DNA from: a virus
Taxonomy: Duplodnaviria > Heunggongvirae > Uroviricota > Caudoviricetes
Strand: one strand, 5' to 3'
Length of the DNA: 64,000 nucleotides
IMG/VR virus record: IMGVR_UViG_3300020045_008999
Span: 64,001-128,000 of that record
Below, in pieces: positions 1,357 to 64,000 of the stretch. Each line of letters begins with the position of its first letter. Positions within the stretch are counted from its first letter, which is position 1. Below the pieces are notes generated by a model. The model was given only the letters and a program-made list of their open reading frames with translations. It was not told the DNA's origin and made no database searches. Position numbers and translations under genes: made by a program.

Positions 1357-2034
1357 TTATAACAATCCATCTTTTATTTCTTCTAATAAATCATTAAAGT
1401 TTTTCATATTCAATGTTCCATCAGTATTCCATATTTCGAAATGTCGTTGATACTTTAAAACCATTCGAATAGTTGGTGCATCACATGAAGAAATGATATT
1501 TGGTATCTGGCTTCTTTCTGATGTGATCAAATTGCCCATTAATTCAATATCGGTGTTGCCCGCAAATGTCGATATTAATCTAGGATTTTGACCAACTTGT
1601 AAGTTTCCAAGTATTTTTTCCGCGCAACCTACCAATGACTCTAAATTGTTTACAGCTACATTATAATTACCACCTACATGTATAGGTCCATCGATTAGAT
1701 TTACTATTGAATTATGAGTACATATAAAATCGCCATGTATTTTCTTCGGGCAAAATTTTAATGAAGTAATACGATTTCCTGAACAATTAAAGCTGCCACC
1801 TACATATTTAGGACATCCTTTTAAAGTAGATAATGTTTGATTCTTACATATAAAACTACCACCAACTATATTAAATTTAAGTGGAATATTTTTATACTTA
1901 TATCCTAATATAATATTCACATTACCATCAACATTAATAGTGCGGTCGCTATTAATTGTATAATTCCTAATGCCTAATTCTCTACATAATCCATCTATAG
2001 CATTTTTTTCATCCTGAGTAATTATATTCTTCAT
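1357..2034 (-). CDS. LRR-like repeat family protein
   Basis: N-cap MKNIITQDEK..ID, 22-aa GG-F-C--N-LTSL-G-P repeats, C-cap LKYQRHFEIWN..EIKDGLL. Confidence 0.9.
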   Translation of the reverse strand: MKNIITQDEKNAIDGLCRELGIRNYTINSDRTINVDGNVNIILGYKYKNIPLKFNIVGGSFICKNQTLSTLKGCPKYVGGSFNCSGNRITSLKFCPKKIHGDFICTHNSIVNLIDGPIHVGGNYNVAVNNLESLVGCAEKILGNLQVGQNPRLISTFAGNTDIELMGNLITSERSQIPNIISSCDAPTIRMVLKYQRHFEIWNTDGTLNMKNFNDLLEEIKDGLL

Positions 2035-2052
2035 TGTTTATATATAAATAAT

Positions 2053-2085
2053 AAAAAAGTCCAATACGTTAATATTGGACTTTTT
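2053..2085. terminator. intrinsic (bidirectional-type) terminator
   Basis: AAAAAAGTCCAATA-cgttaa-TATTGGACTTTTT perfect hairpin with A/T tails. Confidence 0.8.
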
Positions 2086-2103
2086 ATAAGAATTATGATT
2101 ATT

Positions 2104-2796
2104 TTATTCAATGAGCTTTCTCAATACATCTCTTAATGGGATTAGTGTATTGCTGTGAATGTGGTTATTTTGTTTAATCATGTTGTCTAGTTTGTGTATT
2201 TCGTTCAATATGTCGGCTTTCATTTTATCTAATTCATCTTTCTTAGAAGATCTGATACCCGAAACTGCTTCAATGTACTTGGCAATGATTGTCATTTTTA
2301 CCCGTGTTGCAATAAAATTGAATTTAGCATCGCCTTTTAATATTGGCCTTAGTAATGGATACATATTCACTGGTTTATCCCCCACAATTTCCGCGGCCCG
2401 CTTTACATTAATGCCATGCTCTTCCATTAGTGTTATGAAATCAATTCGTCTGAGTCGTTCGGCAGAATAGGCATTGGCTTGTGTCACAGATAGTCGCAAT
2501 TTTTCCTCATCAACTTCCACCTGGGTTTTAATTGGGTTGAATTTTTCTTTATCAACCACTACATCCCGGAGTTCGCCAATGGAATACGTTTGATCGACAC
2601 CAGGGTTTAAAATTAACGACATGCTATATTCCACATCTTTTGGTAATGAAGCTATGAATTCCATCACATCCTTATGATCAATAAGTTTAGTAATCATAAT
2701 TTCGGCACTGGCAAAGTAAGCCCCAATGTTGGATCCAATTTTACGAACGATGCCCTCTTCTAATGGGATTACTTCGATTTTTACTTGATTTGTCAT
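2104..2796 (-). CDS. hypothetical protein
   Basis: 230-aa ORF ending just before the 2053-2085 terminator. Confidence 0.75.
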   Translation of the reverse strand: MTNQVKIEVIPLEEGIVRKIGSNIGAYFASAEIMITKLIDHKDVMEFIASLPKDVEYSMSLILNPGVDQTYSIGELRDVVVDKEKFNPIKTQVEVDEEKLRLSVTQANAYSAERLRRIDFITLMEEHGINVKRAAEIVGDKPVNMYPLLRPILKGDAKFNFIATRVKMTIIAKYIEAVSGIRSSKKDELDKMKADILNEIHKLDNMIKQNNHIHSNTLIPLRDVLRKLIE

Positions 2797-3090
2797 TTTT
2801 GTATTAATTTAAAATAATATATTTTTATATATAAATATAATCAATAATACAACAAAATCCTATAACTTTAACAAAAATTTATTATTATTGTATTAATTAA
2901 CTGATGATTTATAACAGTGATGGTAAATTAGAAACTTGATTTGGAGTGACTTATAACCGGTTCATTTAATAATTAGTACGCGTAGGTGCCTCTGAATGTG
3001 TATGTAGTTGGCGGGATATTTATGAATTTTAATTTGGAAATGTGGATTATAATCAGTATTTTTACTAATTATAATAACATCTTATAATTT

Positions 3091-3600
3091 ATGACACAGA
3101 ATATAATCGAACAATGGAAGTTTCTTTATGATAGTCGATATTACCAAATATCTAACTTGGGAAATATACGAAGTATTGATCGCGTTACGACATCTAGGAA
3201 TGGGAATCAGGTCTCTCGATCCGGCAGGGTCCTAAGAGTGCGTCGAACCAAAAATGATCCACATATATTCACGTCGGTATCATTTGGTTTTGATGAGTTG
3301 GGTAACAACCTATCATCAACAGTTTACATACATAAGGCAGTAGCCGACCATTTTGTACCAAAACCATTTATGCATGATGTTGGCAGTACACTTACTAATT
3401 ATCAATATGCTACACATATTGAACCGGATTATGAGAATAACACCGAAAGCAATATAATGTGGATTACGTACTATGAACTTATGGAACGGCAGCCACATCG
3501 ACCGGGTGCCGCTCACCGATCTTGGAAAACTCGCCGCGAATTATACGGTAAATCAGGAACTAATAAATTATCAAAAAACAAAAAGCATTCTTTAGTTTAA
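3091..3600 (+). CDS. NUMOD4-domain protein with degenerate HNH motif
   Basis: EQWK..YQISNLGNIRS (NUMOD4); VYIHKAVADHF..THIEPDYENN..NIMW resembles an HNH endonuclease core with substitutions. Confidence 0.75.
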   Translation: MTQNIIEQWKFLYDSRYYQISNLGNIRSIDRVTTSRNGNQVSRSGRVLRVRRTKNDPHIFTSVSFGFDELGNNLSSTVYIHKAVADHFVPKPFMHDVGSTLTNYQYATHIEPDYENNTESNIMWITYYELMERQPHRPGAAHRSWKTRRELYGKSGTNKLSKNKKHSLV

Positions 3601-3613
3601 AGAATGCTTTTTT
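3580..3613. terminator. bidirectional terminator
   Basis: AAAAAGCATTCTTT-agttt-AAAGAATGCTTTTTT between convergent genes. Confidence 0.8.
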
Positions 3614-3614
3614 A

Positions 3615-5927: not shown

Positions 5928-6021
5928 GGAGAAATAAGCCGAAAGATTCTGGGTATCGGCAGCATTCTTGAAAAATGTTAATCCTTTAAAGGGTGTGCGG
6001 GTTCGAATCCCGCTTTCTCCG
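5928..6021 (+). tRNA. tRNA-Ser (anticodon UGA)
   Basis: GGAGAAA/TTTCTCC acceptor, GCATT-CTTGAAA-AATGT anticodon arm, long variable arm, GGTTCGAATCC T arm; enlarged D loop. Confidence 0.85.
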
Positions 6022-6026
6022 CAAAT

Positions 6027-6099
6027 AGTTCCAAAGCTCAAATGGACGAGTCCCCGAATACGGATCGGGTGGTTGTGGGTTCGAATCCCATTGGAACTT
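6027..6099 (+). tRNA. tRNA-Arg (anticodon ACG)
   Basis: AGTTCCA/TGGAACT acceptor, GCTC/GAGT D stem, CCCGA-ATACGGA-TCGGG anticodon arm, GTGGG-TTCGAAT-CCCAT T arm; atypical A8 and A32. Confidence 0.8.
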
Positions 6100-6107
6100 C
6101 TAAATAT

Positions 6108-6193
6108 AGGGAAGTAAGCATAGTGGTACTGCAGCGGTTTGCTAAATCGTTCACCGTTCATTCGGTGCGTGGGTTCGAGTCCCACTTTCTCTG
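6108..6193 (+). tRNA. tRNA-Ser (anticodon GCU)
   Basis: AGGGAAG/TTTCTCT acceptor, GCGGT-TTGCTAA-ATCGT anticodon arm, long variable arm, GTGGG-TTCGAGT-CCCAC T arm. Confidence 0.85.
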
Positions 6194-6260
6194 CTAATTT
6201 TTAGTATCATTGTCATTTATTTTATGTATTTTTGTTGTGAAATTAATTTAATTAAATAGT

Positions 6261-12457: not shown

Positions 12458-13132
12458 TTATAACAATCCATCTTCAATTTCTGAAATCAATTCATTAAAA
12501 TTTACTTCATTTAACGATAAATCGTCATTCCAAATGCTGTAATGTCGTTGGTATTTAAAAACAATTTTTAAATAATCCTCAGATATTGTTTGTAGTTCAA
12601 GTGGTAGATTAGTCCCAAACATGTATAATTCACCATCTAAGTCAACATCTAACTCATCATCTAAGTATAATGTGTGGAGGTGGCGGTTATTACCAATATG
12701 TAAATCGCCATGTATTTTATGTGGACATCCATTAAGGGTAGTCAACATGTTACTAACTGCAAGGAAATTACCATTTATGACAGATGGTGACCCATTTAAT
12801 TCCTGTAAATTATTAAAACTACATATAAAGTTCTCCCCAACCTCAACCGGGGCATATTTCAAATCTATCAATTGGTTTACGCCACAGTCAAAATCCTTAC
12901 CAACTTTATATGGGGCACCAAATAGTGTGGATATTACATTACCTGAACATATGAAGTCACCACTAACAGTTCCGAATTTCAGGGGCATTTCCTTGAGTCT
13001 TCTACGACTCAATACTACGCTGCCGTTAACATCAACTGTACCATCAGAATTTATAATATAATCAATAATGTTATGCGACTTACATATTTGATCAATGCGA
13101 TCTTTTTCGTCCTTTGATATTAAATTTCTCAT
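12458..13132 (-). CDS. LRR-like repeat family protein
   Basis: MRNLISKDEKDRID N-cap, repeats, FKYQRHYSIWN..EIEDGLL C-cap. Confidence 0.9.
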   Translation of the reverse strand: MRNLISKDEKDRIDQICKSHNIIDYIINSDGTVDVNGSVVLSRRRLKEMPLKFGTVSGDFICSGNVISTLFGAPYKVGKDFDCGVNQLIDLKYAPVEVGENFICSFNNLQELNGSPSVINGNFLAVSNMLTTLNGCPHKIHGDLHIGNNRHLHTLYLDDELDVDLDGELYMFGTNLPLELQTISEDYLKIVFKYQRHYSIWNDDLSLNEVNFNELISEIEDGLL

Positions 13133-15510: not shown

Positions 15511-16368
15511 TTATAATAACCCATCTTGAATTTCTTCAATTAGTGATTTGAAATTCTCTTCATCCAGGGATAGGTCATCATTCCATATCATAAATGGTCT
15601 TTGGTATTTTAAAATTAATTGAATTTTATCCCAATTAGATAATAAAAGTTTTGGCAATGATGAGGTAGATGCACCATCAACCGTTACAGACTGAGCGTCT
15701 ATATCACTATTTCCTGAAAAGGTGCTTACGATACCGTTATCTTCTAGGTTTAAATTGTGTTTAATATATTCTGCGCACCCATCAAGTGTTTTTAGATTGT
15801 TGTCACTACAGTCATAATACCCACCAACTGAATTCGGCCCACCTACAAGTGTGGTCAATATATTATTAGTACATGCGAAATATTCACCAACTGTGGTACA
15901 CATCCCAGTTAAGGTTTCTAATTTATTAATGGAGCAATCGTAGTACCCACTAACCGATTCGGGTCCACCGAATAATGATGTTAATTTATTTTCTTCACAA
16001 TCAAAATTTCCGCTTATAGTTTTTGGTGCCCCTTCTAATGTAATTAAATTATTACCAGAACAATAATAATCAGATGCTGATAGTGGACCGCCAACGAGTG
16101 AGGTTATATTATTATATGAGCAACTGAAATATCCACCAATATGTCTTGGTGAATTTAACAATGATTTCAATGCTCCATGTGGGCATGTGAAATTACCACT
16201 TACATTATTAAACTTTATTGGAATTTTAGATGATTCAAGGTGTGAAAAAGTCACATCACCTTTAACGTCAATTGAACCATCTGAATTTATTTCATAATTT
16301 TCTATATTATATGCATTACAAATTTCTATAATACTATCAATTTTGCGCTTGTTCACTAAGTTTTTCAT
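15511..16368 (-). CDS. LRR-like repeat family protein
   Basis: N-cap, long repeat array, LKYQRPFMIWN..EIQDGLL C-cap. Confidence 0.9.
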   Translation of the reverse strand: MKNLVNKRKIDSIIEICNAYNIENYEINSDGSIDVKGDVTFSHLESSKIPIKFNNVSGNFTCPHGALKSLLNSPRHIGGYFSCSYNNITSLVGGPLSASDYYCSGNNLITLEGAPKTISGNFDCEENKLTSLFGGPESVSGYYDCSINKLETLTGMCTTVGEYFACTNNILTTLVGGPNSVGGYYDCSDNNLKTLDGCAEYIKHNLNLEDNGIVSTFSGNSDIDAQSVTVDGASTSSLPKLLLSNWDKIQLILKYQRPFMIWNDDLSLDEENFKSLIEEIQDGLL

Positions 16369-16384: not shown

Positions 16385-17002
16385 TTATTCTAATCCATCG
16401 TTTATTTCATCTAACAGTTCTTGGAATTTTAACACATTCAGTGATAAATCATCGTTCCAAATCTCAAAATGTCGTTGGTAGCGAAGAATTATAGGCATGT
16501 GGTGGCGATTAATATAGATAAAATTTGGTAAAGCAGCTGCTAACGCATGTATTTTACCGATTAAGTCAATATCAGTGTAACCACTAAATGTATTGTTCAA
16601 TTGGCGATTTACACCACATCTAATATCTATTCCAATATATTCCGGGGCACCCTCTAGAGAGGTCAGTGAATTACCTGATAACCAGATACTACCGCCTACT
16701 GATATTGGTCCTCCGAATAAATTGGTTAAGTGGTTGGAAGAAACATCGAAGTCTAGACCAACAGATCTTGGTGCGTTATGTAAAGTGGTTATTACATTAG
16801 TTGAACATGTGAAGTCACCACTCACTTTGCCAAATTTTATAGGAATCGTAGCCAAATTAAGTCCTTCCATAAATACTGATCCATTCACATTTACAACGGC
16901 TTCTCGATTTGAATCTACGTCAATAGTATAATTCTGTATATTATATTGTTTACACAACATATTGATACGATCTAATTCACCTTTACTAATTATATTTTTC
17001 AT
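16385..17002 (-). CDS. LRR-like repeat family protein
   Basis: N-cap, repeats, LRYQRHFEIWN..EINDGLE C-cap. Confidence 0.9.
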   Translation of the reverse strand: MKNIISKGELDRINMLCKQYNIQNYTIDVDSNREAVVNVNGSVFMEGLNLATIPIKFGKVSGDFTCSTNVITTLHNAPRSVGLDFDVSSNHLTNLFGGPISVGGSIWLSGNSLTSLEGAPEYIGIDIRCGVNRQLNNTFSGYTDIDLIGKIHALAAALPNFIYINRHHMPIILRYQRHFEIWNDDLSLNVLKFQELLDEINDGLE

Positions 17003-46304: not shown

Positions 46305-47045
46305 ATGAAGAACTTAGTTAATAAAGAGGAAAAGGATAGAATCGATTTGATATGTGGTGTATATAATATTAAAAAATATACAATAAAATCCGATGGTTAT
46401 ATAGATGTTGCTGGTGACGTCGAGTTGTTCGACAAACATTTAACACAACTTCCTCTAAAATTTGGCAAAATTCGCGGGTCTTTTAAATGTTTTGGCAATG
46501 ATTTAACCACATTACTTGGTGCACCCCACACAGTTGGTTTGCATTTCGAATGCCATGCTAATAAAATAACCTCATTAGAGGGTGGTCCATCATCGGTCGG
46601 TGGTAATTACTCATGTGGATCAAATAAATTAGATTCTTTAATTGGTGTGCCAAGTGTAGTTGGTGGCAGTTTTGACTGCAGTTATAATTCATTATCGACA
46701 TTGATTGGTGGTCCACTAGTGGTTGGTAGTAACTATTATTGTCTTAATAACAGTTTGACGTCACTAGAGGGATTGCCAACTATTCTAAATGCTAACATAA
46801 ATATGAGAACTAATCGAATCCGTACTACATATTCAGGAAATGATGATATTTTATTAAACGGTGCTGAAACAGATGTGTTTACTATAGATCCATATCATTT
46901 GCCTAAAGCAATCACGGATAACATATGGCATCTTGATAAAATTATGAAATATCAGCGATTCTTTGAAATTTGGAATGATGACCTAACATTAAGCGAAGAA
47001 AATTTTAAAGTGCTTCTAGATGAAATAAACGATGGACTAGAGTAG
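46305..47045 (+). CDS. LRR-like repeat family protein
   Basis: N-cap, repeats, C-cap; TTTTATATATAG at 46266-46277. Confidence 0.9.
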   Translation: MKNLVNKEEKDRIDLICGVYNIKKYTIKSDGYIDVAGDVELFDKHLTQLPLKFGKIRGSFKCFGNDLTTLLGAPHTVGLHFECHANKITSLEGGPSSVGGNYSCGSNKLDSLIGVPSVVGGSFDCSYNSLSTLIGGPLVVGSNYYCLNNSLTSLEGLPTILNANINMRTNRIRTTYSGNDDILLNGAETDVFTIDPYHLPKAITDNIWHLDKIMKYQRFFEIWNDDLTLSEENFKVLLDEINDGLE

Positions 47046-48478: not shown

Positions 48479-48997
48479 ATGTCACCCAACGAAATTGAAA
48501 TATTGTGCAAGAAATATAAAATTGAAAACTATTCAATTAATTCAAATGGGTCGATTGATGTGGATGGTGATGTAATATTAATATACATAGACTTAACTGA
48601 ATTACCATTAGTATTCAATAATGTTACTGGTTACTTTTGTTGCAATATCAATAAATTAACTACATTAGTGGGTGGACCATCATCGGTAGGTGGTACTTAT
48701 ACATGTAGTTCAAATAAATTAGAATCATTACTAGGTGCACCAAGTGTAGTTGGTGGAAATTTTGATTGCAGCTATAATTCCTTAATATCAACATATTCTG
48801 GTCTTACTGACATTGAAGTAGGTGGAGATGTTTATTTCATGGACTGTGAATTACCTGAATTGATTGAGAACAATTACATAAACATTAAATTGATTTTAAA
48901 ATATCAGAGGCACTTCGAAATTTGGAATGATGATTTATCATTAAATGTAGAAAATTACCAAATATTACTGGATGAAATTAATGATGGTTTGGAATAA
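48479..48997 (+). CDS. LRR-like repeat family protein
   Basis: Short N-cap, repeats, C-cap. Confidence 0.9.
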   Translation: MSPNEIEILCKKYKIENYSINSNGSIDVDGDVILIYIDLTELPLVFNNVTGYFCCNINKLTTLVGGPSSVGGTYTCSSNKLESLLGAPSVVGGNFDCSYNSLISTYSGLTDIEVGGDVYFMDCELPELIENNYINIKLILKYQRHFEIWNDDLSLNVENYQILLDEINDGLE

Positions 48998-49192: not shown

Positions 49193-50236
49193 ATGCAGAA
49201 CTTAATAGATAAAGAAGAAAAAGATCGAATTGATTCCATATGTATGTATTATGGAATTGAAAAATATACAATAAATTCCGATGGTTCGGTTGATGTAAAT
49301 GGATCAATTGATTTATCCAATCGCTTCCTTAATATTTTACCGGTGAAATTTGGTAAAGTGTATGGGAATTTTCTCTGTCATAATAATGCGTTAATTTCAC
49401 TAGAGGGGGCACCACATACCGTTTATGGTAACTTTTATTGCTATAATAATTCATTGCCTACATTAGCCGGTTCACCAAAAACAGTGACTGGTTATTTTTA
49501 TTGTAACCGGAATAATCTAATCACATTGGAATGGGCACCCACCAGTGTAGGGGCTGATTTCATATGTAGTTCTAATGTATTAACATCCTTAAAAGGATCA
49601 CCACAAGTTGTGGGTGGAATTTTTTCATGCGAGAGTAATAAATTGACTTCATTAGTAGGTGCACCAAGTAAAGTTGGTAGTGATTTTGATTGTTCGTATA
49701 ATAAACTAATATCATTAGATGCATGTCCTAGTACGATTCCCGGCGATTTTTGCTGTCATGAAAATCTATTAACATCATTAATAGGGTGTCCTACAACCGT
49801 TGGTAACAATTTTCAGTGTGAATACAATGAATTAACTACATTAGAGGGGTCACCTACAGCTGTGGGTGGTGGTTTTTTTTGTAGAAATAATAGACTAACT
49901 ACCCTAGAGGGCTCGCCCAAACACATCTACGGGGATTTCGATTGTAAGAATAATCTTCTTAAATCATTAGTTGGTTGCCCAGCGCAAATCAACTCACACG
50001 CTTTTTTCAATGGCAATTCGATAAAATCAACATATTCGGGAGATACTGATATCGAAATAAGTTCTAGTGTTGAAACGAGTTCATACTACCTACCATACAT
50101 CATTATACATAATATTACACACATTAAAATAATATTAAAATACCAGAGACACTTTGAAATTTGGAATAATGATTTATCTTTGAATCATGAAAATTTCAAG
50201 GTATTACTGGATGAAATTAACGATGGTTTGGAATAA
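49193..50236 (+). CDS. LRR-like repeat family protein (longest copy)
   Basis: 347 aa; very regular 22-aa repeats between caps. Confidence 0.9.
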   Translation: MQNLIDKEEKDRIDSICMYYGIEKYTINSDGSVDVNGSIDLSNRFLNILPVKFGKVYGNFLCHNNALISLEGAPHTVYGNFYCYNNSLPTLAGSPKTVTGYFYCNRNNLITLEWAPTSVGADFICSSNVLTSLKGSPQVVGGIFSCESNKLTSLVGAPSKVGSDFDCSYNKLISLDACPSTIPGDFCCHENLLTSLIGCPTTVGNNFQCEYNELTTLEGSPTAVGGGFFCRNNRLTTLEGSPKHIYGDFDCKNNLLKSLVGCPAQINSHAFFNGNSIKSTYSGDTDIEISSSVETSSYYLPYIIIHNITHIKIILKYQRHFEIWNNDLSLNHENFKVLLDEINDGLE

Positions 50237-50246
50237 AAAATGGCTT

Positions 50247-50855
50247 ATGCGAAAATCAATTAATATGGTCGAAAATGAACGAATTGATTCAATTTGTGCT
50301 CAATATAAAATTACAAATTATACAATTAATCTAGATGGTACTATTGATATAGATGGTAGTGTTGATTTAAATAATAGAAATCTAACTAAACTACCATTGA
50401 GATTCGGCGTAGTATCTGGAAACTTTCTCTGCTGTCTAAATCAATTAACTACCTTGGTGGGTAGTCCGCGTACAGTTGGTGGTGATTTTTATTCATATAG
50501 TAATAAATTACTACAAAATTTAATAGGCAGTCCTGTTAGTGTCGGTGGTAAGTTTCGTTGTTCCTTTAGTGGATTAACGTCATTGGAGGGATCACCAGCT
50601 AATGTTGGTAAATTATATGATTGTATCAGTAATCCGAATTTAAATAATACATATTCCGGCGGTGTAGATATTGAAGTAGGTGGTGGTTTTAAATCAATCA
50701 ACACCAAATTACCACTACAAATTGTAAATAACATAAAGCATATAAAAACGATTTTAAAATATCAGAGATATTTTTCAATATGGAATGATGATCTATCATT
50801 AAATATTAATAATTTCAATGATTTAATTACTGATATCGAAGAGGGATTGGAATAA
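50247..50855 (+). CDS. LRR-like repeat family protein
   Basis: ATG 50247 (MRKSINMVENERID); repeats; C-cap. Confidence 0.9.
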   Translation: MRKSINMVENERIDSICAQYKITNYTINLDGTIDIDGSVDLNNRNLTKLPLRFGVVSGNFLCCLNQLTTLVGSPRTVGGDFYSYSNKLLQNLIGSPVSVGGKFRCSFSGLTSLEGSPANVGKLYDCISNPNLNNTYSGGVDIEVGGGFKSINTKLPLQIVNNIKHIKTILKYQRYFSIWNDDLSLNINNFNDLITDIEEGLE

Positions 50856-50872: not shown

Positions 50873-51352
50873 ATGAAAGAATTAAATGACAAAGATGTGA
50901 CCCGACAAATATTATTAGTATGCAAGCGAAACCAATTAAAAAAATATACGATTAATTTAGATAAGTCTGTGGATGTCGATGGTGATGTAGATTTAGCTGC
51001 TAGAGATTTGGATAAAATCCCATTAGTATTTGGCAAAGTCACTGGTAATTTTAATTGTTCATACAATATTTTAACTACGTTAGAAGGTTTGCCTCATACG
51101 TTGCATGGTACCATTTATTGTCATAGTAATGAATTAATATCAACATATTCTGGTGATGTTGATATTGATTTACGAGGTAATTTTAAATGTTCAAACAATA
51201 AAAAAATGCCGTTGCTGTTGATGCGAAACTTGACACATATTAAACTGATTTTAAAATATCAGAGATATTTTTCAATATGGAATGATGATCTCTCATTTAA
51301 TGAAGATAATTTTCAAATTTTATTGGACGAAATTAACGATGGATTGGAATGA
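50873..51352 (+). CDS. LRR-like repeat family protein (shortest copy)
   Basis: 159 aa; only one to two repeats between caps. Confidence 0.9.
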   Translation: MKELNDKDVTRQILLVCKRNQLKKYTINLDKSVDVDGDVDLAARDLDKIPLVFGKVTGNFNCSYNILTTLEGLPHTLHGTIYCHSNELISTYSGDVDIDLRGNFKCSNNKKMPLLLMRNLTHIKLILKYQRYFSIWNDDLSFNEDNFQILLDEINDGLE

Positions 51353-51380: not shown

Positions 51381-52046
51381 TTACATCAGACCGTCTTCAA
51401 TTTCATTTAATAATTCTTGGAAGTTTTCTTCGTTCAATGTTAAGTCATCATTCCATATAAAGAAATGCCTCTGGTATTTTAAAATTAATTTAATGTGTAC
51501 AATATTGTCTACAAATAGAACAGGCAAGCATTGACTATCGAAGTATCCTTCACCACTTATTTCTATATCTACATCCCCCGAATAAGTAGAAATTAACTTG
51601 TTATATGAGCAAATTAAATCACCGCCAATGGTAACCGGAGCACCCTCTAGGGTAGTTAATTGATTTTCGTCACAATAAAAACTACCACCCACAGCTGTAG
51701 GTGCCCCCACTAATGAAGTTAAACCATTGTACCCACATCTGAAATTCCCACCAACAGATGTAGGTGATCCTTCCAATGATGTCAACATATTAATACTACA
51801 ATAAAAATCACCACCAATTATAGTAGGTGATCCCTCTAATGAAGTCAAATCATTATCAAAACAATTAAAGTTACCGGTCATATTACCAAATCGCAATGGT
51901 AATTGTTTTAAGCGTTTATGTTCTAAATCAGCATCTCCCTCAACATCAACCGTCCCATCTTCATTAATGATGTAGTTATCTATCCACTGTCGTTTACATA
52001 TTAAATCAATGCGATTCTTTTCTTCTTTAGTAATTATATTATTCAT
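51381..52046 (-). CDS. LRR-like repeat family protein
   Basis: Family start MNNIITKEEK at 52046; repeats; C-cap. Confidence 0.9.
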   Translation of the reverse strand: MNNIITKEEKNRIDLICKRQWIDNYIINEDGTVDVEGDADLEHKRLKQLPLRFGNMTGNFNCFDNDLTSLEGSPTIIGGDFYCSINMLTSLEGSPTSVGGNFRCGYNGLTSLVGAPTAVGGSFYCDENQLTTLEGAPVTIGGDLICSYNKLISTYSGDVDIEISGEGYFDSQCLPVLFVDNIVHIKLILKYQRHFFIWNDDLTLNEENFQELLNEIEDGLM

Positions 52047-52108
52047 ACGATATATTCTTTTTACCCACATTCAGATATCTACTATTGGTATAATTTCACA
52101 GAATCATA

Positions 52109-53029: not shown

Positions 53030-53231
53030 ATAGCGTTTAGAGAATCATCAAATTCACCTGATACCTGGACCAAGTGCTAATGGCAATTCAAACAATACTA
53101 TATCATGAATATCTACGAATCCAACCACATCGACTAAGCCAGTCGATGTAATGGTATAGATCTCAATATTATATTCTTGACATATTGAATCGCTGCGATC
53201 TTTTTTTCACTTTACGAATTAAGTTCCTCAT
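53030..53231 (-). pseudogene. LRR-family pseudogene fragment
   Basis: MRNLIRKVKK, +1 frameshift in A7 run (53201-53207), DRSDSICQEYNIEIYTITSTGLVDVVG..ELPLALG, second frameshift, QVSGEF; rest missing. Confidence 0.75.
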
Positions 53232-54302: not shown

Positions 54303-55136
54303 TTATTCTAAACCATCTTTGATTTCGTCAAGTAATACTTGAAAATTCACATCATTCAATGAAAGATCGACATTCCAGATTTCAAAGTGTCGCTGATACT
54401 TCAAGATCAATTTAATATTCTCTATATTATCGATAATCAATTGCGGTAGATTATGCTCGCGGCAATTAAATTCACCGTTAAACTCTATATCAACATTTCC
54501 GGAATAAGTGGATATTATTCCATTTCCATGACAATAAAATGATTCACCCACTGTGCTCGGTGATCCATCTAGTGTAATTATTCGATTTTTAATACAAAGA
54601 AAACTACCACCAATTGTGTCCGGAGCACCCACCAACGAAGTTATTTCATTATGCGAACAAGAAAAATCACCACCAACCGAAACCGGGGATCCCTCTAGTG
54701 AAGTTAATTTATTATCAAAACACGTGAAGTCCCCAGTAACTGTACGTGGTGCACCCACCAACGAGGTTAAATTATTAGAATTGATATCAAATGAACCACC
54801 AATTGTATCCGGAAATCCTTTTAATGACGTTACATAATTATCATAACAATAAAAACCACCACCAACTGTAATAGGACCACCTTCAAGTGAAGTTAATTTA
54901 TTATATGATGCATAAAAATTACCACCTACAATACGTGGCGCACCAAATAAGTTGGTTAATATATTACCATTGCATATAAAGTTTCCACTAACCTTATTAA
55001 AAGTCAATGGCAAAGTTAGCAATTTCTCATATCTTAGATCTACATCCCCATCAACATCAATCGATCCGTCAGAATTTATTAAATAGTTGAAAATTTGGTA
55101 TTGATTACATACCGAAACAATTTGATATTTTTTCAC
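54303..55136 (-). CDS. LRR-like repeat family protein (GTG start or +1 frameshifted from ATG 55158)
   Basis: Repeats and C-cap intact; MNNLINK from ATG 55158 is out of frame by one base. Confidence 0.85.
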   Translation of the reverse strand: MKKYQIVSVCNQYQIFNYLINSDGSIDVDGDVDLRYEKLLTLPLTFNKVSGNFICNGNILTNLFGAPRIVGGNFYASYNKLTSLEGGPITVGGGFYCYDNYVTSLKGFPDTIGGSFDINSNNLTSLVGAPRTVTGDFTCFDNKLTSLEGSPVSVGGDFSCSHNEITSLVGAPDTIGGSFLCIKNRIITLDGSPSTVGESFYCHGNGIISTYSGNVDIEFNGEFNCREHNLPQLIIDNIENIKLILKYQRHFEIWNVDLSLNDVNFQVLLDEIKDGLE

Positions 55137-55271: not shown

Positions 55272-55952
55272 TTAATCCAATGTAAATATAGATTCCAGCC
55301 CATCATTGATTTCTGCTATTAAATCATTGAAGTTTTCCACATTCAATGACAAATCAGGGTTCCATATATCAAAATATCGCTGGTATTTTAGAATCAATTT
55401 AATCTGGTCCATATTATCGATTATTAGTTGTGGTAGCATAGTATTTTTTAAATAGATATAACCAATTAAGTCTATATCAACATCACCGGAATATGTAGAA
55501 ATTAATTCACTGTTAGAACATTGCCAGTTATTAATTGTGCGTGGTGCTCCATCAAACGAAGTTAATTTATTTTCGAAACAAGAAAAGACACCACTAATTG
55601 TTGTTGGTGATCCCACTAATGAAGTCAGTTTATTATTAGAACAATAGAAATTTCTACCCACCTTTTCCGGAGCACCAAATAATGTAGTCAATTTGTTATA
55701 CCCACAAAGAAAACTACCACCAACCGTAGTCGGACCGCCGGCCAAAGTAGTTAATTCATTACCTGAACAATAAAAATCTCCGGTTACATTGTTGAATACT
55801 AGTGGGAACTCAGTTAAAATTCCACGAGATAAACTGACATTCCCGACAACATCAATTGATCCATCCGAATTTATTGAATAGTTTTGTATTTTATATTTTT
55901 TACAAATTTTATCAATTCGGTCTTTTTCTTCTTTGGTAATTAAATTTTTCAT
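55272..55952 (-). CDS. LRR-like repeat family protein
   Basis: N-cap, repeats, C-cap with short extension. Confidence 0.9.
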   Translation of the reverse strand: MKNLITKEEKDRIDKICKKYKIQNYSINSDGSIDVVGNVSLSRGILTEFPLVFNNVTGDFYCSGNELTTLAGGPTTVGGSFLCGYNKLTTLFGAPEKVGRNFYCSNNKLTSLVGSPTTISGVFSCFENKLTSFDGAPRTINNWQCSNSELISTYSGDVDIDLIGYIYLKNTMLPQLIIDNMDQIKLILKYQRYFDIWNPDLSLNVENFNDLIAEINDGLESIFTLD

Positions 55953-57137: not shown

Positions 57138-57602
57138 ATGATTCAACAAATTAAACCAGATATTAAATTGAGACAAATTATGAAGTCGGTAGAAAAAATA
57201 CGTAATGTGTTATCATTGATTTTTGACATTATGATGAGTGATGGTACTGATGGAATTGAATACCTTTATTTCAAGGACAAATCAATTAGTAGTGATCGTT
57301 TTTACATAACATACAAAACCGATAGCTATAAAAATAATGGACATGAAATTGACTATTGCTTTGATAATATGAAAAAGGGTGCAAAATCTCGGGACTATTC
57401 ATTAATAATTAATTGTAATAATCTTACCAATGACATAATAGGTGAAATAACTATGAATGATGATTATAAATTATCTATTACTGCCTGTAAATTCTTCTAT
57501 AGATTAAATATAAAAATTTGGTATTTTGAAGATAATGCTCTAATAGAATATGATGGCGCAATGATTCAGAGAAGTATTACTATTGATGATATTTTATTCT
57601 AG
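57138..57602 (+). CDS. DKSISxDxFY family protein with C-terminal tag
   Basis: FKDKSISSDRFY; ends IQRSITIDDILF. Confidence 0.75.
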   Translation: MIQQIKPDIKLRQIMKSVEKIRNVLSLIFDIMMSDGTDGIEYLYFKDKSISSDRFYITYKTDSYKNNGHEIDYCFDNMKKGAKSRDYSLIINCNNLTNDIIGEITMNDDYKLSITACKFFYRLNIKIWYFEDNALIEYDGAMIQRSITIDDILF

Positions 57603-58268
57603 ACCATCTTCAATTTCACCCATCAAATCTTTGAAGTTTTCAATATTTAAAGTTAGATCATCATTCCATATAACGAAATGACGTTGGTACTTCAATATTA
57701 ATGAAATCGTATCCGGATCACATGATAAAATCTCATTTGGTATTTTGCTATTTCTGTTAGTAAGCAAGCGGCCCTTTAATTCAATGTCTGTGTGACCGGA
57801 CATGGTGGTTGATAGTAGATGGTTTTGACTAACTTGTAAATTACCATTTATTGTTTCTGCACAACCCACAAGTGTTTGTATATGGGTATTATATGCGCTG
57901 TAATCACCATTCACATAACTCGGCCCACCTACCAAATCAGATAATGGATTTTGCTCACATAAAAAATCACGATGTATTTTATTAGGTGCAAAATTAATGG
58001 AAACTAGGGCATTATTTGCACAGTCAAAAGTACCACCTACATATTTTGGACAACCTAGTAACGAGGTCAGTGAATTATAATTACAATAAAAACTACCAGT
58101 TACATTATTGAAGCGTAGTGGAATCGCGAGCAACCCGTTGAGACTTATATTGACACTACCATTCACATCTAACGAACCATCCGCATTAATTAAATAGTTT
58201 TTGATGTTGTATTGTTCACATATGGTATCAATTCGATCCTTTTCCTTTTTGCTTATTAAGTTTTGCAT
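57594..58268 (-). CDS. LRR-like repeat family protein
   Basis: N-cap, repeats, C-cap; closest in pattern to 1357..2034. Confidence 0.9.
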   Translation of the reverse strand: MQNLISKKEKDRIDTICEQYNIKNYLINADGSLDVNGSVNISLNGLLAIPLRFNNVTGSFYCNYNSLTSLLGCPKYVGGTFDCANNALVSINFAPNKIHRDFLCEQNPLSDLVGGPSYVNGDYSAYNTHIQTLVGCAETINGNLQVSQNHLLSTTMSGHTDIELKGRLLTNRNSKIPNEILSCDPDTISLILKYQRHFVIWNDDLTLNIENFKDLMGEIEDGLE

Positions 58269-58832: not shown

Positions 58833-59435
58833 CTATTCCAATCCATCTTTAATTTCATCCAGCAGCTCTTTGAAATTATCCTCATTCAATGTAAGGTCTT
58901 CATTCCAGATGTAAAAGTGTCGCTGATATTTTAGAATTAATTTAATATGTTCAATATTGTCCTTTAAGGATTGTGGGAGTTTATTTTGTCCTAAAAAAAT
59001 ATCACCAGTCACTTCAATATCAATATCACCAGAATAAGTACAAATTATATCAGTATTGGTACTGATATAATCACCACGTACTATACTAGGCGATCCTATT
59101 AATGAAGTTAAATTATTATGAGAGCATTTATAATCACCACCCACCTCATTCGGTGACCCCACCAATGATGTTAATTTATTATTAGAACAATTGAAGCCAC
59201 CATCCACAGTAACCGGTGCGCCATCTAATGATGTCAATGCATTTGTATAACAATAAAAATCACCACTCACTTTTCCAAATCGCAATGGTATTTTTGTGAA
59301 AGTTTGCCAAACCAGAGCTACTGACGCATAAACATCTAGCGTGCCATCCACATTGACAGAATATCCTATTATATTATATTTTTTACATATTGAATAAATT
59401 CGATCATTTTCTTCTTTGTTAATTAAGTTAGTCAT
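58833..59435 (-). CDS. LRR-like repeat family protein
   Basis: N-cap, repeats, C-cap; best in-window match to CRISPR spacer 4. Confidence 0.9.
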   Translation of the reverse strand: MTNLINKEENDRIYSICKKYNIIGYSVNVDGTLDVYASVALVWQTFTKIPLRFGKVSGDFYCYTNALTSLDGAPVTVDGGFNCSNNKLTSLVGSPNEVGGDYKCSHNNLTSLIGSPSIVRGDYISTNTDIICTYSGDIDIEVTGDIFLGQNKLPQSLKDNIEHIKLILKYQRHFYIWNEDLTLNEDNFKELLDEIKDGLE

Positions 59436-61482: not shown

Positions 61483-61915
61483 GTTGGGGATGACTACAAT
61501 TTGAAAGGTATATCCACCGGCAAATGGAATCAAAATGGGTTTCGGTAAGTTGGGGATGACTACAATTTGAAAGGTATATCCACCTACCGACGTCTTTAAG
61601 TTCAATTACGTTAGTTGGGAATGACCACAATTTGAAAGGTATATCCACCTCGTGTTGATTAATACAGTGTATTTATATTTGTTGGGGATGACCACAATTT
61701 GAAAGGTATATCCACCAAGAACTACTAGAAGAGATTAAAGATGGATGTTGGGGATGACTACAATTTGAAAGGTATAACCACCGTTAGAGTAGTTTAGGTC
61801 TTCTTTGCGATAGTTGGGGATGACCACAATTTGAAAGGTATATCCACCTTGTTTGATCTTGGAATTGTGATGTTTTTGTTGGGGATGATCACAATTGTAA
61901 AAGGCATGTTCCACC
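61483..61915 (+). CRISPR. CRISPR array, 7 repeats / 6 spacers
   Basis: 36-nt GTTGGGGATGAC(T/C)ACAATTTGAAAGGTATATCCACC at 61483, 61549, 61614, 61681, 61747, 61813 and degenerate 61878; spacers 30, 29, 31, 30, 30, 29 nt. Confidence 0.97.
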
Positions 61916-61951: not shown

Positions 61952-62233
61952 ATGAATTACACTAGGCCGAATAATATTGATCATGAAGATACACCAGAAG
62001 ATATTCTTAATGGTGCATTGATTTTTTGTAGAACAATTAGTATTCTTCTTGAAGATAATACGGGAATTATTGTTGGGTTACATGGTGATATGCGAAGTCC
62101 AACAAATAAAAAAAATGCTACTAAAGTTGTTGTATTCAAAAGTCATAACATGATCCATATTGATGATATTTCGGATGAAGAAGAAGAAATATTATTAGAG
62201 GGTCAATTAATCGCAATACAAAAGGGTAATTAA
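61952..62233 (+). CDS. hypothetical protein
   Basis: 93-aa ORF directly after the array; no Cas2/Csx27/Csx28 features recognised. Confidence 0.65.
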   Translation: MNYTRPNNIDHEDTPEDILNGALIFCRTISILLEDNTGIIVGLHGDMRSPTNKKNATKVVVFKSHNMIHIDDISDEEEEILLEGQLIAIQKGN

Positions 62234-62251
62234 TTTTTGATAATTTTCCAT

Positions 62252-63052
62252 CTATTCCAACCCATCTTCAATTTCGGCGATTAGTTCATTAAATTTTCCA
62301 ACATTCAACGAAAGATCATCATTCCAAATCTCAAAATGTCGTTGATACCTCAAAATTATTTTAATATGTTTTAGATTATCAATAAATATTTTAGGTAACA
62401 TATGATCGTAACCGGAATATCCGCCGCCATATTCAATATCGACATCCCCTGAATACGTCGATATAATACTGTTTCTAAAATATTGAATATTGCCACCAAT
62501 TGTGGCAGCACAGCCTTTTAATGAAATAATTGAAGTGTTTCCACCAAAATTATAATCACCACCTACTGTTTTTGGACCACCTACTAAATTAGTTAGGCTA
62601 TTACCAGCACAGTTAAAAGAGCCGGTAACTGTCGATGGACTACCAATTAAATTCAATAGCTTATTCCCGGTACACGTAAATGTACCAGTGATCATATCTG
62701 GAACACCATCAAGTGCTGATATTGCATTCGCGGTTATTATATAATCTCCACCAACAATACTAGGACCACCTACCATCGAAGTTAGATTCCAACTATAAGA
62801 ACAAATGAAATGACCACCCACTGTGTGTGGAAATCCATCGAATGTATATATCCCCAATGAAATACAAGTGAAATCACCTGTGATTTTACCAAATCTTATT
62901 GGTAATTTATTGATTTCCGTATAGTTTTTTAAATTAACGTCACCGTTTACATCAATAGAGCCATCCGAATTTATTGAATAGTTTTGTATTTCATATTTTT
63001 TACAAACTTTATCAATTCTATCTTTTTCTTTTTTAGTGATTAAATTTTTCAT
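62252..63052 (-). CDS. LRR-like repeat family protein
   Basis: N-cap, repeats, C-cap. Confidence 0.9.
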   Translation of the reverse strand: MKNLITKKEKDRIDKVCKKYEIQNYSINSDGSIDVNGDVNLKNYTEINKLPIRFGKITGDFTCISLGIYTFDGFPHTVGGHFICSYSWNLTSMVGGPSIVGGDYIITANAISALDGVPDMITGTFTCTGNKLLNLIGSPSTVTGSFNCAGNSLTNLVGGPKTVGGDYNFGGNTSIISLKGCAATIGGNIQYFRNSIISTYSGDVDIEYGGGYSGYDHMLPKIFIDNLKHIKIILRYQRHFEIWNDDLSLNVGKFNELIAEIEDGLE

Positions 63053-63065
63053 ATACCTATATATT

Positions 63066-63710
63066 TTATTTTAATCCGTCTTTTATTTCTGTTATTAAGT
63101 CATTGAAATTATTTACATTCAATGTAAGATCCTCATTCCAGATTTCAAAGTGTCGCTGATATTTTAAAACTAGGGGTATGTGATCGTGATTATCGTCAAA
63201 TTGTAGTGGTAGATTATTTCCATGTAAGTAAACAGCTCCACCAATTTCTAGGTCAGCATAACCGGTATAAGTGGATGATAATTTATTTCTTTGGCATGAG
63301 AAATCTCCAACCACTACTGTGGGTGCACCCTCTAATGAAGTTATTTGATTAAAGTGGCAGTAGAAATCACCACCAACTGTAGTAGGTGCGCCCTCTAATG
63401 AAGTTAATATACTATACATACATGAAAAATCCCCACCAACGGTAACCGGAGCACCCTCTAATGTAGATAGTTGATTATTATAGCACTGAAAATTACCACC
63501 TACCGATGATGGACCTCCTACTAATGAAGACAAATCATTATTAGAACAATAAAAATCGCCACTTACTTTTCCAAATCGTAATGGTAATGTAGTTAGCAAT
63601 CCTTTGGAAAATTTAACATTACCATCCACATCAATAGAACCATCTGAGTTAATGGTATAATTTTTAATTTTATATTCGGTACAAATTGAATCGATATGGT
63701 CCTTTTCCAC
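63066..63710 (-). CDS. LRR-like repeat family protein (GTG start)
   Basis: Repeats and C-cap intact; in-frame ATG 63737 is separated by a TAA at 63720-63722. Confidence 0.85.
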   Translation of the reverse strand: MEKDHIDSICTEYKIKNYTINSDGSIDVDGNVKFSKGLLTTLPLRFGKVSGDFYCSNNDLSSLVGGPSSVGGNFQCYNNQLSTLEGAPVTVGGDFSCMYSILTSLEGAPTTVGGDFYCHFNQITSLEGAPTVVVGDFSCQRNKLSSTYTGYADLEIGGAVYLHGNNLPLQFDDNHDHIPLVLKYQRHFEIWNEDLTLNVNNFNDLITEIKDGLK

Positions 63711-63778
63711 TTTTATTGATTAAATTATAGGTTTCATATTCATATTTATTAAATATAAATTAAATTTCGCGTCATATA

Positions 63779-64000
63779 CTATTTCAATCCTTCGTCAATA
63801 TCATCTATTAACATCTGAAAGTTTTCCTCGTTCAAGGTTAAATCATCATCCCATATAAAGAAGTGTCGCTGGTACTTTAAGATCAATTTAATGCGATTGT
63901 CATAAAATGGGTCGTGATATAGATTATTAACATAAAGGTAAATACTCCCACCAATTTCAATATCAATATCACCGGAATAAGTAGAAGTTAAATTATTACT
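63779..64000 (-). CDS. LRR-like repeat family protein, 3' part (runs off window)
   Basis: ..LILKYQRHFFIWDDDLTLNEENFQMLIDDIDEGLK-stop read from the minus strand. Confidence 0.85.
   Translation of the reverse strand, partial: SNNLTSTYSGDIDIEIGGSIYLYVNNLYHDPFYDNRIKLILKYQRHFFIWDDDLTLNEENFQMLIDDIDEGLK

Follow-up and report, generated by a model that had tools for sequence, protein, structure and literature searches.

A bacteriophage of about 600 kb gives some 13% of its genome to 100-120 copies of one small leucine-rich repeat (LRR) protein, and these copies probably serve as a putative repertoire of specific intracellular binders. The fuller reading that we favour, and to which we would give about an even chance, is that of a standing repertoire: LRR proteins that are small, soluble and acidic and would be made within the infected cell, each copy with a recognition face of its own. 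This face would lie on the concave beta-side of a solenoid of the cysteine-ladder type with 21-residue units, held between a constant N-terminal cap (N-cap) and a constant acidic C-terminal module (C-cap or C-module). We infer that the copies each bind a different macromolecule, the targets being most likely proteins of the host or of rival elements met in phage-host or phage-phage conflict, and that the family may have grown by local tandem duplication and as whole 21-aa units were gained and lost, with the resulting copies then kept for long.

The family itself is a real and confirmed observation. When the window (the whole 64,000-nt stretch analysed) was searched with cap profiles and tblastn, it yielded 28 complete genes on both strands encoding 159-347 aa, one further gene cut at its end (63779-64000, minus strand) and one decayed N-cap remnant, matching exactly the 28 complete genes, one partial gene and one pseudogene counted in the first-pass annotation; BLASTP clustering of the window's ORFs gave a single 27-member family. 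Of the window, 30% (about 19.5 kb) belongs to the family. The build described in that annotation, an N-cap followed by tandem repeats and a C-cap, is seen in the sequences but does not extend to the member at 47903-48475 (plus strand), whose C-terminus deviates and is of the type found in a second sub-family. The features of the window are as follows.

1357..2034 (-): LRR family gene, 225 aa
9130..9918 (-): LRR family gene, 262 aa
10560..11156 (-): LRR family gene, 198-aa ORF from GTG; canonical N-cap from residue 14
12458..13132 (-): LRR family gene, 224 aa; relative's ortholog 72% identical (P0158)
15511..16368 (-): LRR family gene, 285 aa; relative's ortholog 79% identical (P0064)
16385..17002 (-): LRR family gene, 205 aa
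17013..17621 (-): LRR family gene, 202 aa
25425..26072 (-): LRR family gene, 215 aa
34274..34903 (+): LRR family gene, 209-aa ORF; canonical start at residue 9
38917..39717 (-): LRR family gene, 266 aa
39810..40412 (-): LRR family gene, 200 aa; N-terminal peptide divergent
41335..42249 (-): LRR family gene, 304 aa
44935..45753 (-): LRR family gene, 272 aa; N-terminal peptide divergent
46305..47045 (+): LRR family gene, 246 aa
47055..47651 (-): LRR family gene, 198 aa
47903..48475 (+): LRR gene, 190 aa; family N-cap and repeats, alternative C-terminus of the second sub-family
48479..48997 (+): LRR family gene, 172 aa
49193..50236 (+): LRR family gene, 347 aa, longest in the window; internalin J (3bz5) match, E 4.6e-14
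50187..50855 (+): LRR family gene, 222-aa ORF; canonical N-cap from residue 21
50873..51352 (+): LRR family gene, 159 aa, shortest
51381..52070 (-): LRR family gene, 229-aa ORF; canonical start at residue 9
about 53035..53215 (-): pseudogene remnant (tblastn); decayed N-cap with stop codons, without repeats or C-cap
54303..55136 (-): LRR family gene, 277 aa, GTG start; without the first N-terminal peptide
55272..55952 (-): LRR family gene, 226 aa; query of the genome-wide and phage searches
55977..56684 (-): LRR family gene, 235-aa ORF; canonical start at residue 36
57594..58268 (-): LRR family gene, 224 aa; relative's ortholog 79% identical (P0139)
58833..59435 (-): LRR family gene P0001, 200 aa; AlphaFold2-modelled, pLDDT 95.1
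61717..61746 (+): CRISPR spacer 4 (neighbouring array)
62252..63052 (-): LRR family gene, 266 aa
63066..63710 (-): LRR family gene, 214 aa, GTG start
63779..64000 (-): family gene, C-terminal part, crossing the window end; whole gene at genome 127779-128543, 254 aa

As a separate observation, CRISPR spacer 4 reads as codons of the family C-cap (ELLEEIKDG); its best match to the phage's own family copies is 25/30, and the closest match in its own genome, the C-cap codons of P0001 at 58841-58870, carries 5 mismatches.

The expansion had been put at about 30 copies, which holds for the window, but the window contains only about a quarter of the family, as the genome has about 120 members. Across all 596,785 bp, cap profiles identify both caps in 97 full-length family ORFs, the N-cap alone in a further 18 and the C-cap alone in 2 (one of which belongs to a split gene, genome 136856-137495), and the BLAST cluster holds 120 family ORFs of at least 120 aa. 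Together they amount to 77.7 kb (13% of the genome), all of it within 10-234 kb, an accessory part well removed from the genes for the terminase (378 kb) and the tail sheath (367 kb). These roughly 100 copies are old and intact: among the 97 full-length ORFs the most similar pair of paralogs is 71.4% identical and closest paralogs have a median identity of 59%, and the window holds only the single decayed remnant (tblastn). The family includes tandem arrays with gaps of 10-13 nt, and its nearby genes are the more alike, with a cap identity of 0.72 at distances up to 2 kb and 0.63 at more than 50 kb, as growth by local duplication would produce. The phage's common start-proximal AT-rich motif stands before 59 of the 97 genes and, together with these tight arrays, predicts a capacity for expression; the genes for the tail sheath and the prohead protease have it too, as do about 156 other ORFs throughout the genome, and it thus does not mark a late class. 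The proteins are acidic (median pI 4.72 vs 5.63 for other ORFs), their N-terminus is charged, and no signal-peptide-like or membrane-spanning stretch was found in the family by 19-residue hydropathy (maximum 1.60). In 76 of the 97 copies the first residues, M-K-N-L-I, are conserved at the protein level although their codons vary synonymously; they sit outside the secondary structure of the AlphaFold2 model.

The repeat unit, previously given as 22 aa, is of 21 aa: the proteins form a length ladder of 159/179/200/221/242/263/284/305/326/347 aa, and 351 of the 380 steps from one unit to the next measure 21 aa, with 2-11 repeats per protein. In 476 ungapped 21-aa units the consensus residues are F5 (77%), C7 (90%), N10 (94%), L12 (84%) and L15 (83%). 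The proposed LRR-like solenoid is borne out by the AlphaFold2 model of P0001 (200 aa; pLDDT 95.1, pTM 0.89), which has a periodic strand at F5-x6 of each unit, by VIA-align scores of Z 9-10.4 over 110-165 residues to many LRR structures (YopM, SDS22, IpaH9.8, SspH1, internalins and VLRs at Z about 9-10), and by the only sequence match among solved structures, the internalin J LRR (3bz5, E 4.6e-14), which stays in register over 160 residues. By its repeat core and its modelled curved solenoid the family is a member of the LRR superfamily, and judging from its units, with cysteine at position 7 in 90% of them, it is of the InlJ-type cysteine-ladder kind. A Pfam search with five window members returned no family at the cut-off, LRRNT scoring far below it; precomputed PF12799 (LRR_4) matches exist on a few relatives. 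Assignment to the pentapeptide-repeat proteins was rejected, given the period of 21, the lack of a 5-residue periodicity and fold matches to LRR proteins; the pentapeptide name on some AlphaFold DB relatives is an automatic annotation.

The C-module ends the protein 69 residues after the last repeat and carries a net charge of about -8 over those residues. Modelled alone it reaches a pLDDT of 76, i.e. moderate confidence, and no solved domain was found to resemble it (best Z 3.0). In nearly all of the best 150 matches listed, drawn from 1.84 billion representatives, it is C-terminal, and the proteins are small LRR proteins of about 35-310 aa; the one exception, a 6179-aa protein, shows short, probably spurious matches. 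A C-module without an LRR in front, or fused to another domain, was not found among the matches listed.

It had been claimed that the positions flanking the F-x-C-x-x-N core vary most, and they do: per-position entropy over the repeat units is 3.0-3.7 bits at positions 4, 6, 8 and 9, and 0.5-1.3 bits at core positions 1, 3, 5, 7, 10, 12, 15 and 19 (1.5 at position 17, 2.4 at position 2). Taking positions 4, 6, 8 and 9 as concave, a presumed face assigned from canonical LRR positions within the unit, we find paralogs identical at 18% of concave, 34% of other exposed and 79% of core positions, and at 55-60% in the caps. The first-pass placement of the variable residues on the concave face stands insofar as this face is the least conserved among paralogs, but positions 11, 16, 20 and 21 vary too (3.1-3.6 bits), so the clustering on one face is only relative; moreover, any LRR family of great age is expected to be highly variable at its exposed positions, whether or not its members are binders. 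The concave composition is paratope-like as far as sequence can tell: relative to the phage proteome, His stands at 3.0x, Tyr and Asp at 2.3x each, Asn at 2.1x and Ser at 2.0x, while Lys, Leu, Val and Pro are under-represented.

The caps do stay fixed, as had been stated, and are held so by purifying selection: between paralogs cap codons have a pS of 0.71-0.84, i.e. saturation, and a pN of 0.18-0.22 (0.08 at repeat core positions), and since the synonymous sites are saturated while the cap proteins are conserved, selection and not gene conversion keeps the caps alike. This saturation bars a measure of selection between paralogs. The comparison of orthologs with related phages covers nine protein pairs, one of which, P0084, is probably not a true ortholog, and four DNA pairs, which give dN/dS. 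Orthologs are 71% identical at the concave positions across the nine pairs. Purifying selection throughout, which had been set against a diversified library, describes most of what the four pairs show (gene-wide dN/dS 0.16-0.35; pooled concave sites 0.29); it does not describe the closest pair, which alone exceeds 1 at concave sites (1.92), with 5 of 12 replacements falling on the concave 8% of sites (P = 0.0016). There appears to be no general sign of ongoing diversifying selection. Concave residues that are nearly random among paralogs and mostly kept among orthologs would fit a standing repertoire and not a hypervariable arms-race library, because ortholog dN/dS is only 0.16-0.35 and one pair in four has a concave burst. 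No reverse transcriptase was detected in the genome by the PF00078 profile, under conditions in which control profiles did match, and the family was therefore rejected as a diversity-generating retroelement target.

Related phages carry the family as well (10 copies in 18 kb, 6 in 4.9 kb, 3-5 in 12 kb), in differing gene order. Rare bacterial copies of full architecture lie on integrase-linked chromosomal islands in Flavobacteriia; no phage particle genes were seen in their examined flanks, and one, from Flavobacterium, sits between two type I restriction-modification systems. The C-module is equally conserved in these copies, that of Flavobacterium included. The common docking partner that the first-pass annotation proposes for the cap is hypothetical: the terminal position of the module in nearly all matches listed, together with this conservation, would suit a purely structural role, or a partner in the host, just as well.

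Other explanations must be weighed against a repertoire of intracellular binders. It is conceivable, albeit unlikely, that the proteins form a virion-associated set of interchangeable accessories that dock through their constant cap at a single site of the particle, either as host-recognition adaptors or as head-packaged proteins ejected into the cell infected next, such that the variable face would meet the cell surface or the first defences at entry. The motif shared with the tail sheath and prohead protease genes and the M-K-N-L-I start, unstructured in the model as a targeting peptide might be, are consistent with this, as is the precedent of phage Goslar, whose virion proteins join a constant docking module to variable domains, LRR included (bioRxiv 10.64898/2026.04.21.720040). 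Yet the same motif precedes some 156 further ORFs, the family is remote from the structural genes, solenoids of 2 to 11 repeats would hold their caps at very unlike distances and angles, and the island-borne bacterial copies have full architecture without particle genes in the flanks examined. It also seems rather improbable that the constant part is the business end, with the acidic C-module, or both caps, targeting a single basic partner shared by all copies, for example by mimicking nucleic acid to block a DNA-binding defence enzyme, and with the LRR as a tolerant spacer whose exposed residues drift. The charge of the module, the low pI of the family, the strong conservation of the module even in Flavobacterium and the restriction-modification neighbours of that copy would all be explained; on the other hand, one and the same activity would exist in about 100 redundant copies, and yet all are intact at less than 71% identity, the concave positions are kept in orthologs (71%) instead of drifting and have a non-random composition, the module modelled alone reaches only pLDDT 76 and Z 3.0, and it was not found without an LRR in front among the matches listed.

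That the family has no present function, being the residue of runaway tandem duplication under slack packaging limits, would agree with the tandem arrays, the weak decay of similarity with distance, the one dead remnant in the window and the unlike gene order of relatives. We consider it very improbable, given that 97 frames are intact despite saturated synonymous divergence, that ortholog dN/dS is 0.16-0.35, that core and caps are strongly conserved and that the expansion is common to related phages; the conservation data in particular speak strongly against it.

Among solved structures, the one matched by sequence is InlJ of Listeria monocytogenes (3bz5). It shares the 21-residue period and a first half of the unit reading L-x-C-x-x-N-x-L-T-x-L, and the core cysteine recurs at the equivalent position in almost all repeats (90% of 476 units in the phage). 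The second half of the unit differs, being x-G-x-P-x-x-V-G-G in the phage, and InlJ is secreted and anchored to the cell wall as a large surface protein that has other domains besides, whereas the phage proteins have 159-347 aa, no hydrophobic leader and their own N- and C-caps. Membership in the internalin family, which is recognised by a secretion signal, an internalin N-cap, an inter-repeat Ig-like domain and surface anchoring, was rejected: the N-terminus is charged without a hydrophobic stretch, the end is the family's own C-module, and the five window members have no internalin Pfam domain. The type III effectors IpaH, SspH1 and YopM, whose concave face recognises the target in deposited complexes, rank first in the Foldseek search and near the top in VIA, albeit with TM-scores of only about 0.4; they share short 20-22-residue units, a helical N-terminal cap and intracellular action, the latter predicted on the phage side. 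Unlike IpaH and SspH1, the phage family has no NEL ligase or other catalytic domain, nor is it known to have a secretion signal, and all members end with the C-cap at 159-347 aa with no E3 ligase domain after the LRR, so they were not assigned to the IpaH/SspH (NEL) effectors.

The VLRs of jawless vertebrates, to which the first-pass annotation had compared the family, match in structure, in the capped short LRR solenoid and in concave diversity. VLR diversity is made somatically by cassette copying, whereas each phage variant is a separate, complete germline gene with its own start and stop, orthologs are stable and keep their concave residues, and the caps are unrelated, without disulfide-rich LRRNT/LRRCT (LRRNT far below cut-off), such that VLR membership was rejected; as no reverse transcriptase was found, the analogy is conceptual only.

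Giant eukaryotic viruses carry family expansions of other folds, namely ankyrin, F-box and FNIP repeats, and the presumed role of lineage-specific expansions in large viruses is conflict with the host. Among phages, the zinc ribbon of Bacillus phage G, with about 35 copies, was called unprecedented in a survey of 224 jumbo phages that does not mention LRRs (Iyer et al. 2021, PMC7824862). It is likewise a small binding-type domain amplified in a very large viral genome, and the LRR family has three times its copy number. Lastly, the DUF7941 proteins of chimalliviruses such as phage Goslar, about 10 copies per phage and virion proteins by mass spectrometry, join an N-terminal constant docking module to variable domains, some of them LRR or beta-helix (bioRxiv 10.64898/2026.04.21.720040); that module is probably unrelated to the constant module of the LRR family, and the likeness, by description, is one of logic, the constant docking combined with variable recognition that the first-pass annotation proposes.

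BLASTP clustering of the ORFs in the window returns one 27-member family, and by cap profiles and tblastn the window holds 28 complete genes, one gene cut by its end and one decayed remnant, precisely the count given in the first-pass annotation. The layout proposed there, an N-cap, a variable number of repeats and a C-cap, is likewise seen in the family sequences of the window. The N-cap starts M-K-N-L-I-S-K-E-E-K-D-R-I-D and finishes near D-G-S-I-D-V-x-G-D-V, the tandem unit reads V-G-G-x-F-x-C-x-x-N-x-L-T-S-L-x-G-x-P-x-x, and the C-terminal module (C-module) ends I-L-K-Y-Q-R-H-F-x-I-W-N-D-D-L-x-L-N-x-x-N-F-x-x-L-L-x-E-I-x-D-G-L. The unit, however, is not 22 residues long as had been claimed: the protein lengths form a ladder with a step of 21, and 351 of 380 neighbouring units are spaced by 21 residues. 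Similarly, an expansion of about 30 copies describes the window correctly but not the family as a whole, only about a quarter of which lies there. Both caps are present in 97 ORFs genome-wide, and the BLAST cluster comprises 120 ORFs of at least 120 aa that occupy 77.7 kb, or 13% of the genome, all within 10-234 kb. A further 18 ORFs (one of them at window 47903-48475) share the N-cap and the repeats and have a different C-terminal end. A co-expanded partner family was rejected, since the families next in size in the genome count only 12, 11 and 8 members and show no pairing with the LRR genes. The features concerned are as follows (window positions unless marked otherwise).

63779-64000: family gene cut by the window end (cap profiles and tblastn)
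about 53035-53215: decayed N-cap remnant with stops (tblastn)
genome 10.7-30.7, 44.5, 176, 188-198 and 216-218 kb, and window 47903-48475: second LRR sub-family
22987-23412, 24281-24742, 29868-30296, 40489-40929, 40944-41330, 42349-42714, 45816-46253, 53324-53788 and 53848-54288: ~140-aa family
56665-57093, 57138-57602 and 58378-58815: ~145-aa family, four copies genome-wide

Members of the second sub-family measure 91-203 aa, the 91-aa ORF being a frameshifted family gene, and their C-terminus is of the type E-N-F-x-I-L ... Y-x-R-Y ... I-x-x-I-L. The ~140-aa ORFs, nine in the window and 12 genome-wide, are interleaved with the LRR genes; they carry a conserved N-terminal R-x-I-x-I-D-L-L-L motif and match neither Pfam nor PHROG families. 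The ~145-aa proteins end I-T-I-D-D-I-L, similar to the ends of the second sub-family and the pair 33182-34192 / 35261-36298; genome-wide, the terminal motif I-x-I-D-x-I-L, common to other small families, is not clearly enriched at termini. Among the LRR genes there is also an R2K-clade ATP-grasp protein (13178-13921, + strand; Pfam R2K_2, E 7e-25), and a cluster of three tRNA genes (Ser-TGA, Arg-ACG, Ser-GCT) is found at 5940-6194.

The 596,785-bp IMG/VR record from which the window was taken (bases 64001-128000) is 98% complete by CheckV and has a GC content of 0.32. It encodes a large terminase, a tail sheath and a head maturation protease, which identifies it as a tailed megaphage with a contractile tail. 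No public sequencing runs, RNA runs included, were listed for 10 kb of the window.

The proposal that the repeats build an LRR-like solenoid is borne out by structure prediction and by structural matches to LRR proteins. The AlphaFold2 model of a 200-aa member (58833-59435; 35 aligned relatives) reaches a pLDDT of 95.1 and a pTM of 0.89; it has an N-terminal helix, each unit contributes one short strand at F5-x6, and the C-terminal module is formed of three helices. Foldseek gave weak top matches to the LRR domains of IpaH, SspH1 and lamprey VLRs, and an exhaustive structural comparison gave Z scores of 9-10.4 to YopM, SDS22, IpaH9.8, internalins and other LRR proteins. The only solved relative by sequence is internalin J (3bz5, E 4.6e-14). 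In Pfam scans of five members LRR models stayed below cut-off with nothing above it, and PHROG matches were limited to two families of unknown function, both weak. The proteins lack both a hydrophobic leader and membrane segments, and they are acidic (median pI 4.72, with a net charge of about -8 on the C-module); we therefore read them as probably soluble and cytoplasmic.

Positions 4, 6, 8 and 9 of the unit were assigned to the concave face from the established geometry of LRR proteins, in which the concave sheet is lined by the x residues of L-x-x-L-x-L-x-x-N. Per-position entropy peaks at unit positions 6, 9, 11, 20 and 8 (3.5-3.7 bits), followed by 21, 16 and 4. A gap-free alignment is given by the 13 members that are exactly 200 aa long; paralog identity in it is 79% for the core, 55-60% for the caps and 34% for the remaining exposed positions, and falls to 18% on the concave face, with pN values of 0.08 for the core, 0.44 for other exposed positions and 0.58 for the concave face. 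The claim that the residues flanking the repeat core vary most thus holds in relative terms, but variability extends beyond one face. Compared with the phage proteome, the concave face is rich in His (3.0-fold), Tyr (2.3-fold), Asp (2.3-fold), Asn (2.1-fold) and Ser (2.0-fold) and poor in Lys, Leu, Val and Pro, and the other exposed positions carry ordinary surface residues.

The paralogs are old. No two exceed 71.4% identity, and a copy and its nearest paralog share a median of 59%. The caps are saturated with synonymous differences (pS 0.71-0.84) and show few non-synonymous ones (pN 0.18-0.22), so that they are alike by protein-level selection and not by gene conversion; residues 1-5 keep their amino acids, with synonymous variation free. 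Owing to the same saturation, paralog dN/dS is uninformative as a test of selection and was set aside. As genomic distance grows, the caps become a little less alike (identity 0.72 for genes within 2 kb, 0.63 for those more than 50 kb apart), and repeat number is no more alike in neighbours than in random pairs, which fits old local duplication combined with frequent gain and loss of whole units. There is no reverse transcriptase in the phage genome, and a diversity-generating retroelement (DGR) is thus not the source of the variation.

The expansion recurs on three metagenome contigs of related phages (10 genes in 18 kb on L001, 6 in 4.9 kb on L010 and 3-5 in 12 kb on L009), whose non-family genes share ~74% DNA identity with the phage. 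Some family genes have clear orthologs there, at 72-94% protein identity, higher than to any paralog, and family gene order differs between the genomes. L010, aligned to genome 171-178 kb, carries orthologs of the genes at 175132, 172527 and 177486 in changed order and at DNA identities of 96%, 76% and 86%, from which we conclude that relatives differ by rearrangement and mosaicism of the arrays. In nine ortholog pairs concave identity is 71%, not below whole-protein identity, and gene-wide dN/dS is 0.16-0.35 in the four pairs with DNA. In the closest pair the ratio of concave dN to gene-wide dS rises to 1.92, as the concave face, 8% of the sites, takes 5 of the 12 replacements (P = 0.0016); in the other three it is 0.43, 0.35 and 0.06, and pooled 0.29. 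Given this concave conservation and low dN/dS, the putative copy-specific recognition surfaces are mostly conserved and their change at most episodic, as in a standing repertoire and not a fast arms-race library. The hypervariable arsenal of the first-pass annotation, which had itself named purifying selection throughout as evidence to the contrary, is therefore not sustained by the gene-wide ortholog ratios or by the pooled concave value. Its wider interpretation as a library of binders survives in part: the hypervariable element falls away, but a repertoire of binders is compatible with purifying selection.

The C-module was searched as a 69-residue profile against 1.84 billion representative proteins, and 200 were found. 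It sits at the C-terminal end in nearly all of the 150 matches listed, in proteins of about 35-310 aa, and among these 150 it is never fused to a catalytic or other domain. A search of IMG/VR confirmed no other contig, and a fold search with the C-module alone (model pLDDT 76, of moderate confidence) returned no convincing analogue (best Z 3.0). Since the C-module is equally conserved in bacterial copies, its putative common partner, if there is one, is more likely to be a host component.

Among these bacterial copies, a full-architecture member of 208 aa is present in Flavobacterium erciyesense (WP_210788298), and near-identical genes occur on several metagenome contigs. On contigs L004-L008 the copies each adjoin a 425-aa tyrosine recombinase and a 126-141-aa protein; in Flavobacterium and on one other contig a copy lies between two type I restriction-modification systems; and two convergent copies lie next to the 425-aa tyrosine recombinase on a Flavobacteriia contig that also encodes SprB and PorP. 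One of the restriction-modification-flanked contigs also has a Bro-N protein and a KAP NTPase nearby. The C-module was not found in those searched among 300 other genomes sampled from Flavobacterium's family. Such sparse copies beside recombinases indicate a family that is mainly viral and sporadic on mobile islands, and these relationships support Flavobacteriia as the probable host. A shared neighbour as the partner was rejected: the 506-aa and 450-aa genes beside two bacterial copies show no mutual relationship, and nothing in the phage matches the former.

The window also contains a CRISPR array.

59549-61204, + strand: TnpB-like ORF, 551 aa, with OrfB_IS605 and Cas12f-like TNB domains, directly upstream of the array
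61483-61913: CRISPR array, 7 repeats of 36 nt and six spacers

Spacer 4 reads as family C-cap codons. Its best match in the phage's own genome is 25/30 (5 mismatches), and it has 13 own-genome matches at up to 7 mismatches, as against none for 20 shuffles; no exact match was found in viral_contigs or metagenome_contigs. Spacer 1 matches a DUF5131 gene (L008:15582-15611) at all but 3 positions, and two of these mismatches are synonymous; the gene lies on an integrase-linked island contig of Flavobacteriia that has two LRR family genes. The two matches suggest that the array may be aimed at related elements carrying the family.

An [A/T]ATATATA motif precedes 59 of the 97 family genes, ending 3-5 nt before the ATG in 42 of the 59 and lying 16-29 nt upstream in most others; in tandem arrays the 10-13-nt gaps consist of a stop codon overlapping the motif. 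About 156 other ORFs, the tail sheath and prohead protease genes included, have it too, which shows the family genes to be equipped like other phage genes. Written as [A/T]ATATATA(G), it stands ahead of ~215 ORFs across the whole genome, its end lying 3-4 nt or 17-23 nt from the ATG (for example at window 55953-55976 and 58269-58290), and the overlapping stop in tandem arrays is the TAA of the preceding gene. It could be a promoter for leaderless or short-leader mRNAs or, alternatively, a translation signal. As a marker of expression time it was rejected: structural genes have it just as ~150 other ORFs do, and its absence is confounded by operons.

One phage thus keeps ~100-120 old, selected LRR copies on 13% of its genome, with a copy-specific face that is conserved in relatives. 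If the copies bind specific host or rival proteins, they would explain part of the extra DNA of megaphages, offer ~100 natural baits for Flavobacteriia defence factors, and provide a compact cysteine-ladder, disulfide-free binder scaffold. In a bolder version, which we consider improbable, the ~100 copies would be dedicated inhibitors or adaptors, each for a different host-defence or rival-element protein, forming a germline "antibody shelf" for infecting many Flavobacteriia strains; all of the copies would be passed by their constant acidic C-module to one shared host factor, and possession of the family might characterise elements that compete within these hosts. With its spacers 1 and 4, the array would on this view resemble the CRISPR of phage ICP1, which targets a host island.

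Arsenals of repeat proteins are familiar from bacterial pathogens and from the giant viruses that infect eukaryotes; to our knowledge, they are not well known in bacteriophages. Literature searches for an LRR expansion in a phage found nothing. In the ESM Atlas there are at least 82 more clusters of similar small LRR proteins, 94-100% viral, which makes the class a large and uncharacterised one. LRR proteins go unmentioned in the widest published survey of jumbo phages (224 phages), where the 35-copy zinc-ribbon expansion of phage G is called unprecedented (PMC7824862). The fold itself is ordinary and its sub-type is that of internalin J, with which the family has the 21-residue period and the core cysteine in common. 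Membership tests rejected inclusion in the internalins, NEL effectors, VLRs or DGR targets, and the likeness to VLRs is conceptual only; closest in use are the recognition domains of the IpaH, SspH and YopM effectors.
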